Below, piece by piece: positions 42,856 through 43,180 of a stretch of DNA of 64,000 nucleotides; the stretch's first letter is position 1; each line of letters starts with the position of its first letter. This DNA comes from Escherichia coli (GTDB lineage Bacteria > Pseudomonadota > Gammaproteobacteria > Enterobacterales > Enterobacteriaceae). A program made the translations under genes and the position numbers. Location: assembly GCF_003334305.1 (NCBI RefSeq), contig NZ_QOWS01000003.1. One strand, 5' to 3'. Below the pieces are notes generated by a model that did no database searches, was not told where the DNA came from, and saw nothing but the letters and a program-made list of their open reading frames with translations.

Positions 42856-42888
42856 ATCTATTCAAGTATCTATTCACGAATCTATTCA
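42856..42888. repeat. Three tandem 12-bp direct repeats (core atctattca), with a fourth copy at 42791-42799
   Basis: atctattcaagt / atctattcacga / atctattcattt at 42856, 42868, 42880; gtatctattca also at 42789-42799. Confidence 0.7.
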
Positions 42889-43149
42889 TTTATGTTCAGC
42901 CGTCATCCAGGAAGGGCATATCAGCAACTCTGGTGGACAACCATAAATTTCTGCCATTTTGCTTTTGATGTTTGAGCTAAACCGTTCCGTCTTTTCGATC
43001 TATTTTAGAGAATTAATCGAGATACCTAACATTTTACTTACTTCAGCAAGCGATAATTTATGCCTGATACGCACGGCGGCTAGCCAGGAAATACGCTGGC
43101 TTAACATTAAATTGATAATCTCCCGCTCCTGGTTTTCCAGATCGATCAT
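42886..43149 (-). pseudogene. XRE-like HTH reading frame interrupted by an in-frame TAG (49 codons + TAG + 37 codons)
   Basis: Minus-strand ATG 43149 with aggaagg RBS: MIDLENQEREIINLMLSQRISWLAAVRIRHKLSLAEVSKMLGISINSLK, TAG at 43000-43002, then in frame IEKTERFSSNIKSKMAEIYGCPPELLICPSWMTAEHK, TGA at 42886-42888. The two halves together resemble one HTH_XRE domain. Below the 60-aa track cutoff. Confidence 0.4.
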
Positions 43150-43180
43150 ATTCCCTTCCTTTGGTATTTTAATCAGCGAG

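Follow-up and report, generated by a model that had tools for sequence, protein, structure and literature searches.

In Escherichia coli K-12 the interval between deoD and lplA holds yjjJ (hipH), a monocistronic gene encoding a HipA-family Ser/Thr kinase toxin with an N-terminal helix-turn-helix (HTH) domain (PMC8262856, PMC9948734); the adjacency of deoD, yjjJ and lplA is recorded in published tables (PMC3946193; PMC12288877). The E. coli DNA analysed here, a 64-kb stretch of contig NZ_QOWS01000003.1 (assembly GCF_003334305.1; hereafter the window), shares this deoD...lplA slot with K-12, together with the deoD-proximal spacer carrying ATCTATTCA repeats, a predicted promoter and an ATG. However, the hipH coding sequence is absent, and a 264-bp gene without sequence relationship to it lies on the other strand (42886..43149, minus strand; 87 codons, TGA stop included in the coordinates). 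We are confident that this region is a pseudogene of an 87-residue XRE/Cro-C1 regulator, inactivated by an internal amber codon (Q50*) and inherited on one haplotype.

The closest described counterpart is the RefSeq pseudogene EL381_RS30720 of E. coli E2863, found in the same lplA–deoD position. The whole interval is 100% identical to that of the window, and the NCBI annotation pipeline PGAP labels the gene there as 'helix-turn-helix domain-containing protein', pseudo, 'internal stop'. The pseudogene is already known, being flagged in RefSeq, and is an ordinary finding. No function of any allele is reported in the literature searched.

Among proteins of solved structure, the intact form resembles the Cro/C1 five-helix repressors CylR2 (2xiu/1utx), SinR (N-terminal domain, 3qq6), P22 c2 (2r1j) and 434 Cro (2cro) and the controller proteins of restriction–modification systems (2b5a, 1y7y), both in its match to the Pfam family HTH_3 and in predicted fold. 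Foldseek comparison with these structures gives target-normalised template modelling (TM) scores of 0.7–0.77 and root-mean-square deviations of 1.5–2.4 Å over 53–61 residues. However, identity to them is only 20–30%, and the E. coli protein adds an N-terminal helix (residues 4–18) and a short C-terminal tail. XRE-type antitoxins of type II systems (HipB, HigA, the C-terminal domain of MqsA) are alike in size (87–88 aa) and fold class; the position in a toxin locus is suggestive, but the sequence similarities are weak and below threshold. Against the HipB model of NCBIfam, distant relatives of the protein score 20–23 bits (cutoff 79) and the E. coli protein gives no match. Context and profiles do not mark the gene as a type II antitoxin: it is flanked by lplA and deoD, the window contains neither hipH nor hipA, and NCBIfam antitoxin models stay far below their cutoffs.

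A regulator frame divided by one codon

Directly downstream of lplA, a minus-strand ATG (43149–43147) opens a 49-codon frame (MIDLENQEREIINLMLSQRISWLAAVRIRHKLSLAEVSKMLGISINSLK; open reading frame (ORF) 43003..43149), whose 3′ end LSLAEVSKMLGISINSLK is followed by TAG at 43002–43000. Past this codon the same frame stays open for 37 codons more (IEKTERFSSNIKSKMAEIYGCPPELLICPSWMTAEHK; 42889..42999) and is closed by TGA at 42888–42886. Re-reading of the sequence bears out every coordinate that an earlier note on this DNA had given for the split frame, namely the ATG, the TAG and the 37-codon extension, as well as the 31 nt between the lplA stop (TAA, 43183–43181) and the ATG with the sequence aaggaagggaat, resembling a ribosome-binding site. 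This Shine-Dalgarno-like element spans 43151..43162 on the minus strand, its core AGGAAGGG ending 3 nt before the ATG. The ORF is AT-rich in composition, with a GC content of 40.9% versus 52.5% in the window and 57.9% in lplA.

Domain tests of the joined 87 residues were run on the intact orthologue from O157:H7, three residues of which differ from the read-through translation. HTH_3 (PF01381) covers residues 23–76 of this orthologue with the complete model (positions 1–55 of 55; 28.8 bits, E = 1.2e-6), spanning both sides of the stop; overlapping weaker Pfam matches are given by HTH_19, HTH_31 and HTH_25, and PF01381 is precomputed for most homologues. The earlier note had proposed searching the halves separately. 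The N-terminal 49 residues alone match HTH_3 at model positions 1–26 only (15.8 bits, E = 0.014), a weak and partial hit, and the C-terminal 37 residues alone give no Pfam match, leaving the joined sequence as the informative test. Since the HTH_3 match is full only when the halves are joined, the continuation of the frame is more than chance and the halves constitute one domain. Together with intact 87-codon orthologues at the same position, this full-model match upholds the proposal of one XRE-type regulator cut by a single nonsense codon; the outcomes named as counting against it did not occur, an HTH match being found and intact ORFs being present in other E. coli.

The best profile match of the protein is PHROG 7241, 'transcriptional regulator' (E = 3.4e-10). 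In NCBIfam no curated family reaches its cutoff for the protein, its halves or its distant relatives, and PADLOC returns only a generic 'HTH_VI' model with no defence-system assignment. An AlphaFold2 model built on a small alignment (predicted local distance difference test score, pLDDT, 87.8) places the Cro/C1 helices at residues 22–29, 34–41, 45–54, 59–69 and 73–76, preceded by the extra helix 4–18. Its best Foldseek matches, namely CylR2, a Deinococcus XRE regulator, SinR, C.BclI, DdrO, P22 c2 and 434 Cro, all belong to the Cro/C1 class; a sequence search of solved structures finds CylR2 only (E = 0.45). By profile and five-helix fold the intact gene is a member of the XRE/Cro-C1 family, with sequence-specific DNA binding as a predicted property.

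The window copy does not have the uninterrupted coding sequence of a functional member, given the TAG at codon 50. In the model, residue 50 lies in the middle of helix 3 (residues 45–54), the recognition helix, so the stop would cut away the second half of the DNA-reading helix together with the two C-terminal core helices. The residual 49-codon ORF is predicted to encode the extra N-terminal helix, HTH helices 1 and 2 and the first half of helix 3; the untranslated 37 codons would supply what remains of helix 3, the two helices that follow (4 and 5) and the tail. The 49-aa product would be unable to form the five-helix DNA-binding domain and is very probably non-functional.

The amber allele in the E. 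coli population

In alignments, codon 50 is CAG (Gln) in O157:H7, in derivatives of E. coli B and in EH031, CAA (Gln) in AVS0282 and CGG (Arg) in B1.H1.1; in the alignment with distant relatives, 8 of the 10 sequences have Gln at this position and the other 2 have Arg. The guess that the lost residue was Tyr, Trp or Gln thus comes down to Gln in the intact E. coli alleles, with the one Arg strain as an exception. The change from CAG to TAG is a single C-to-T transition. Intact 87-aa orthologues are represented by WP_000566150.1 and WP_000566155.1, with coding sequences annotated in O157:H7, E. coli B and others; they have CAG, not TAG, at codon 50, and the closest of them, the EH031 protein (WP_000566155.1), differs from the window allele only by Q50* and L57F. 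Overall, the read-through translation is 96–98% identical to intact proteins. With intact orthologues at the same locus carrying a sense codon, and with a heritable stop, the window copy (amber codon at 43000..43002, minus strand) is a nonsense pseudogene.

Alleles were counted with 41-nt queries centred on the variable base, every 28-mer megablast seed having to cover that base. The TAG allele is found in 1,691 of 5,426 complete E. coli genomes (~31%) and CAG in 2,036 of the same set, both counts being lower bounds as an exact 28-mer seed is needed. The short XRE-type interval is present in 4,058 genomes (match covering at least 80% of the interval), and the 455-bp lplA–deoD interval is at least 99% identical to that of the window in 1,699. 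Comparison of the 1,691 TAG genomes with the 1,699 near-identical intervals indicates near-complete fixation of TAG on one common haplotype. The 49-aa product, in identical form, has been called on at least 1,000 public contigs and has a UniRef entry. A recently inactivated regulator was one possibility raised in the earlier note; the gene is inactivated, but not especially recently or privately, the allele being fixed in a haplotype of nearly a third of complete genomes. Three copies of the TAG 41-mer are filed as plasmid sequence, and an 834-kb 'plasmid' (CP054241.1) carries chromosomal yjjJ at 97.5% identity; all of these are probably mislabelled chromosome fragments.

The same CAG-to-TAG change at codon 50 occurs in strain GTEN_23 (NZ_CP113486.1, L005:2874-3137) on a clearly different haplotype, with ~20 differences from the window over 455 bp; this copy is likewise annotated as a pseudogene. 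As the nearest differing sites are close to the stop, 16 nt away on its upstream side and 21 nt on its downstream side, recurrent mutation appears more likely than transfer or shared ancestry. B1.H1.1 carries a frameshift allele, and public data contain many truncated or frameshifted forms of the gene. Among nine XRE alleles the ratio of nonsynonymous to synonymous polymorphism (pN/pS) is ~0.21, a rough value from non-independent sequences, versus 0.06 for lplA and 0.01 for deoD from the same loci; the segment from helix 2 to helix 3 is almost invariant. These values indicate moderate purifying selection on the intact gene, which would have been functional before the stop arose. The picture suggested by these comparisons is of a dispensable, lineage-variable small regulator.

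We propose that a small XRE regulator gene took over the yjjJ/hipH slot, 31 nt downstream of lplA and on the same strand, and that the hipH coding sequence was thereby replaced precisely, leaving behind the hipH promoter and repeat region. A C-to-T transition converted Gln50 into an amber codon. Translation would end after 49 residues, and the resulting fragment, lacking half of helix 3 and the whole of helices 4–5, would be unable to form the five-helix DNA-binding domain. This allele is inherited and fixed on the haplotype seen in ~31% of complete genomes.

Could the truncated 49-aa peptide instead have a function, whether retained or newly acquired, such as that of a small protein or of a dominant-negative partner? 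Its ribosome-binding site and start codon are kept, and the ORF is fixed in a large lineage. We nevertheless consider this very improbable, since the peptide ends in the middle of the recognition helix without two of the five core helices, matches HTH_3 only weakly and partially, and has no intact partner copy visible in the window. Production of a full-length regulator by amber suppression (a supE-type tRNA-Gln) or by programmed read-through seems to us slightly less probable still. Because the codon arose from CAG, a suppressor inserting Gln would give back precisely the native protein, and the downstream 37 codons are still open, with L57F as their only change relative to the closest intact allele; however, the youth of the mutation explains the open frame equally well, and the frameshifts that destroy other alleles argue for dispensability. 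The window contains no suppressor tRNA, its only tRNA being tRNA-Leu(CAG), and no read-through-promoting structure or Rfam family was found at the site, an Rfam scan of 42500–43400 at E ≤ 1 giving one sub-threshold chance match to a small nucleolar RNA. To our knowledge, natural E. coli isolates are normally without amber suppressors. A sequencing or assembly error in a gene that is really intact, which the earlier note had also considered and which a single-base difference from intact alleles might suggest, is refuted for practical purposes by the identical TAG 41-mer in 1,691 independently sequenced genomes, the 1,699 near-identical intervals and the recurrence of the 49-aa product on public contigs.

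Several points weigh against a plainly inactivated, inherited pseudogene. Some constraint acts on the intact gene, so that neutrality is not an obvious account of how a null allele came to be fixed in a large lineage; the estimate of that constraint is itself a rough one. The allele queries leave ~330 XRE-type genomes matched by neither. UAG may be read through at a low level, or a suppressor tRNA may be encoded elsewhere, our view of tRNA genes being that of the 64-kb window, beyond which glnV and glnX lie.

Occupants of the hipH slot

The slot contains yjjJ in ~1,300 complete E. coli genomes, whose match to the interval is limited to its last 169 nt. One such hipH-bearing genome has yjjJ between deoD and lplA, oriented like deoD and against the XRE gene, with the stop codons of yjjJ and lplA adjoining. 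The two allele types lose DNA homology exactly at the lplA stop and regain it at the yjjJ ATG, a codon which the XRE-type allele of the window retains as the CAT codon of His86 on the other strand (42894–42892 in the direction of the XRE gene; 42892..42894 on the plus strand). The order deoD-repeats-hipH-lplA-ytjB is found again in E. albertii, Citrobacter, Cedecea, Buttiauxella, Pseudocitrobacter and Siccibacter, and most other Enterobacteriaceae, like K-12, have yjjJ/hipH in this slot. From this distribution, hipH would be the ancestral occupant, and the XRE gene would have replaced its coding sequence precisely.

The earlier note had pointed to yjjJ as the K-12 occupant of this gap and suggested an alternative or eroded allele of it; the former description is apt, the latter is not. 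That the frame is an eroded remnant of yjjJ/hipH, such as its N-terminal HTH domain, is refuted in spite of the exact slot and the HTH motifs in both proteins (PMC8262856), because the gene runs on the opposite strand, BLASTP between the XRE protein and YjjJ finds no similarity (best E = 0.21 over 6 residues), DNA homology is confined to sequence outside the two coding regions, an XRE orthologue of 44% identity occupies the same slot of another enterobacterium, and a true hipH remnant (L128), retaining hipH residues 13–67, looks different. A tblastn search of the whole window with YjjJ likewise returned nothing.

A word-indexed search of 5.8 billion proteins finds the XRE protein in Escherichia and Shigella only, including E. 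marmotae and a further Escherichia species, and an exhaustive HMMER search of 1.84 billion representatives yields one true full-length relative, P0121 (87 aa, 44% identity; L135:864-1127, Logan contig DRR526040_81833). On present sequence data the gene thus appears essentially restricted to Escherichia. P0121 is encoded in the same slot, after an lplA of 89% identity and before hairpins resembling repetitive extragenic palindromic (REP) elements and the deoD 3′ end; no ATCTATTCA repeats are present at this locus. An orthologue diverged to 44% in an identical slot suggests that the occupant is old and fast-evolving. The same HMMER search also returns a handful of XRE proteins of ~95–133 aa which share residues 8–76 and have an extra N-terminal domain; the context of one such distant relative, P0123, shows no obvious toxin partner. 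A further candidate, P0033, was rejected as a 72%-identical homologue: it is the same locus C-to-T-converted throughout (R>W, P>L, A>V, S>F, H>Y; L012, L013). It probably stems from bisulfite-treated or deaminated reads assembled as native sequence, an artefact able to mislead homology searches.

Repeat arrays are also found beside deoD in other enterobacteria from which hipH is missing or reduced. In Serratia plymuthica (L054) ytjB directly follows the orphan array; in Enterobacteriaceae bacterium RIT691 (L065) the gene after the array is a different one, encoding a 217-aa membrane protein; and in L128 it is followed by the hipH stub mentioned above. Given these orphan arrays, loss or replacement of hipH with the upstream repeats kept appears to be recurrent.

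HipH-type kinases are not confined to the chromosome. About 30 E. coli plasmids of ~90–100 kb, including IncY plasmids (L142), carry a hipH homologue that shares ~35% identity with YjjJ and has tandem ATCTATTCA-type repeats of its own, and a hipH homologue is also found on an Enterobacter IncC plasmid (L145). Such copies imply that kinases of this type can enter strains whose chromosomal slot holds the XRE gene.

The orphaned hipH control region and its surroundings

The array retained in the window, lying on the plus strand between the deoD terminator hairpin and the XRE stop, consists of a distal ATCTATTCA repeat (42791..42799) and three tandem copies with a 12-bp period (42856..42888; 42856–42864, 42868–42876 and 42880–42888), giving a spacing of 65-12-12. 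The last copy overlaps the XRE TGA stop on the other strand. These four are the only exact copies in the window, versus 0.31 expected, and no shuffle reached four. Alleles with hipH have an identical repeat block, its last copy ending 3 nt ahead of the hipH ATG. All four copies are perfect in the window haplotype. Among XRE-type alleles the array is largely preserved, with the beginnings of decay: most have ATCCATTCA in one copy, one strain is short of a 12-bp unit and others have further changes.

Shimada et al. (2014) predicted a promoter TTTTCA-18-TCTATT in the deoD>yjjJ spacer and reported H-NS binding there (PMC3946193). A promoter-like sequence with the same hexamers and 18-nt spacing is kept in the window, facing the XRE gene, at 42833..42862 (plus strand), between the distal and proximal repeats, and may well be active in the XRE-type allele. 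The retained hipH ATG opens only a 27-codon ORF antisense to the XRE gene, ending at 42975. In the absence of HipH, the retained promoter could produce an antisense RNA against XRE and the lplA 3′ end.

The repeats have a wide distribution. A scan of 100,044 species genomes for TGAATAGATNNNTGAATAGAT gives at least 120 loci, where ~9 are expected by chance (our own estimate, assuming equal base frequencies). In 70 of the 120 loci listed, a YjjJ/HipH homologue of 30–95% identity starts within ~0–110 nt, and all 70 read away from the repeats in the ATCTATTCA sense. They come from Gamma- and Betaproteobacteria: Enterobacterales, Xanthomonadales (Dyella, Rhodanobacter, Luteibacter), Burkholderiales (Acidovorax, Variovorax, Curvibacter), Dechloromonas, Chitinimonas and Aliidiomarina. 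The loci listed share one architecture, with a distal copy, a 65–66-nt gap (27 loci) and two to three tandem copies at a 12-bp period (102 spacings of 12). The other 50 listed loci have no hipH match; some are truncated loci in which a HipH N-terminus begins (e.g., L068), some are orphan arrays, and the remainder consist of unrelated microsatellites of 12-mers or of one repeated element found in a Verrucomicrobia metagenome-assembled genome.

To guard against ascertainment bias, eight plasmid hipH homologues were picked by protein similarity alone. Six of the eight have direct repeats of 12-bp period before the start codon, with lineage-specific cores (ATCTATTCA, (G/C)CTATTCA, GCTATTCA, ATCGTTTCA, ATCGTTGCA and ATCTTCTCA); the Aeromonas gene has a single repeat copy, and no repeat is obvious upstream of the Diaphorobacter one. 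The repeat core co-varies with the protein lineage, the pattern expected of an operator read by HipH's own N-terminal HTH, and we lean towards regarding the repeats as a putative HipH autoregulatory operator. The control of HipH has been described as unknown, and its N-terminal HTH 'may' bind DNA (PMC8262856); in the HipH papers c-di-GMP (cyclic dimeric guanosine monophosphate) acts at the promoter region, and none of them defines a site. In the literature searched we found no paper on the XRE gene, the hipH/XRE polymorphism or the repeat motif, the motif string matching only unrelated primers and short hairpin RNAs.

The flanking genes are identified from the ORF list and from the annotation of identical DNA. 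Upstream of the XRE gene and on the same minus strand lies lplA (43181..44197), encoding lipoate-protein ligase A; deoD (42006..42725, plus strand), encoding purine nucleoside phosphorylase, is convergent with it. The deoD terminator (42757..42787, plus strand) is recognizable in the sequence as an inverted repeat with a 9-bp GC-rich stem (AAGCCGGAG/CTCCGGCTT), a 10-nt loop and a T-run, the hairpin occupying 42757–42784. The consensus terminator scan missed it, the loop being longer than 8 nt, and counts of the promoter and terminator scans were at background, so we relied on the sequence itself. The same consensus scan finds no terminator-like site between lplA and the XRE ORF, and the two genes are for that reason probably co-transcribed.

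ARAGORN and Rfam place the single tRNA-Leu(CAG) at 27686–27772 (minus strand), and a match to naRNA4 (CssrE, a REP-derived small RNA) lies beside it at 27912–27994 (plus strand). K-12 has what we take to be three tandem tRNA-Leu genes (leuVPQ) roughly that far upstream of the deo operon; the tRNA-Leu copy number may differ in the window, or the array may have collapsed.

The pseudogene itself matters little, being the lineage-fixed remnant of an uncharacterised small regulator and already flagged in RefSeq. Of wider relevance is that about three quarters of complete E. coli genomes lack yjjJ/hipH and have the XRE gene instead, a distribution to be considered when HipH results on persistence and biofilms are generalised. 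The repeat array is an apparent cis-regulatory signature of hipH across Proteobacteria, without a description in the literature searched; it offers a concrete, testable DNA target for the question of HipH control and is more interesting than the pseudogene. We also entertain, as a long shot, the idea that the XRE gene and hipH are functionally linked alternative alleles, the XRE protein acting in trans on HipH-type kinases or on the retained promoter and array, possibly as a stand-alone antitoxin or repressor which would give immunity to incoming hipH genes such as the IncY and IncC plasmid copies. The precise swap, the intact hipH control region and the purifying selection on the XRE gene are compatible with such a link. 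In that case the amber allele would make roughly one in three E. coli natural knockouts, with a phenotype in persistence or plasmid compatibility.

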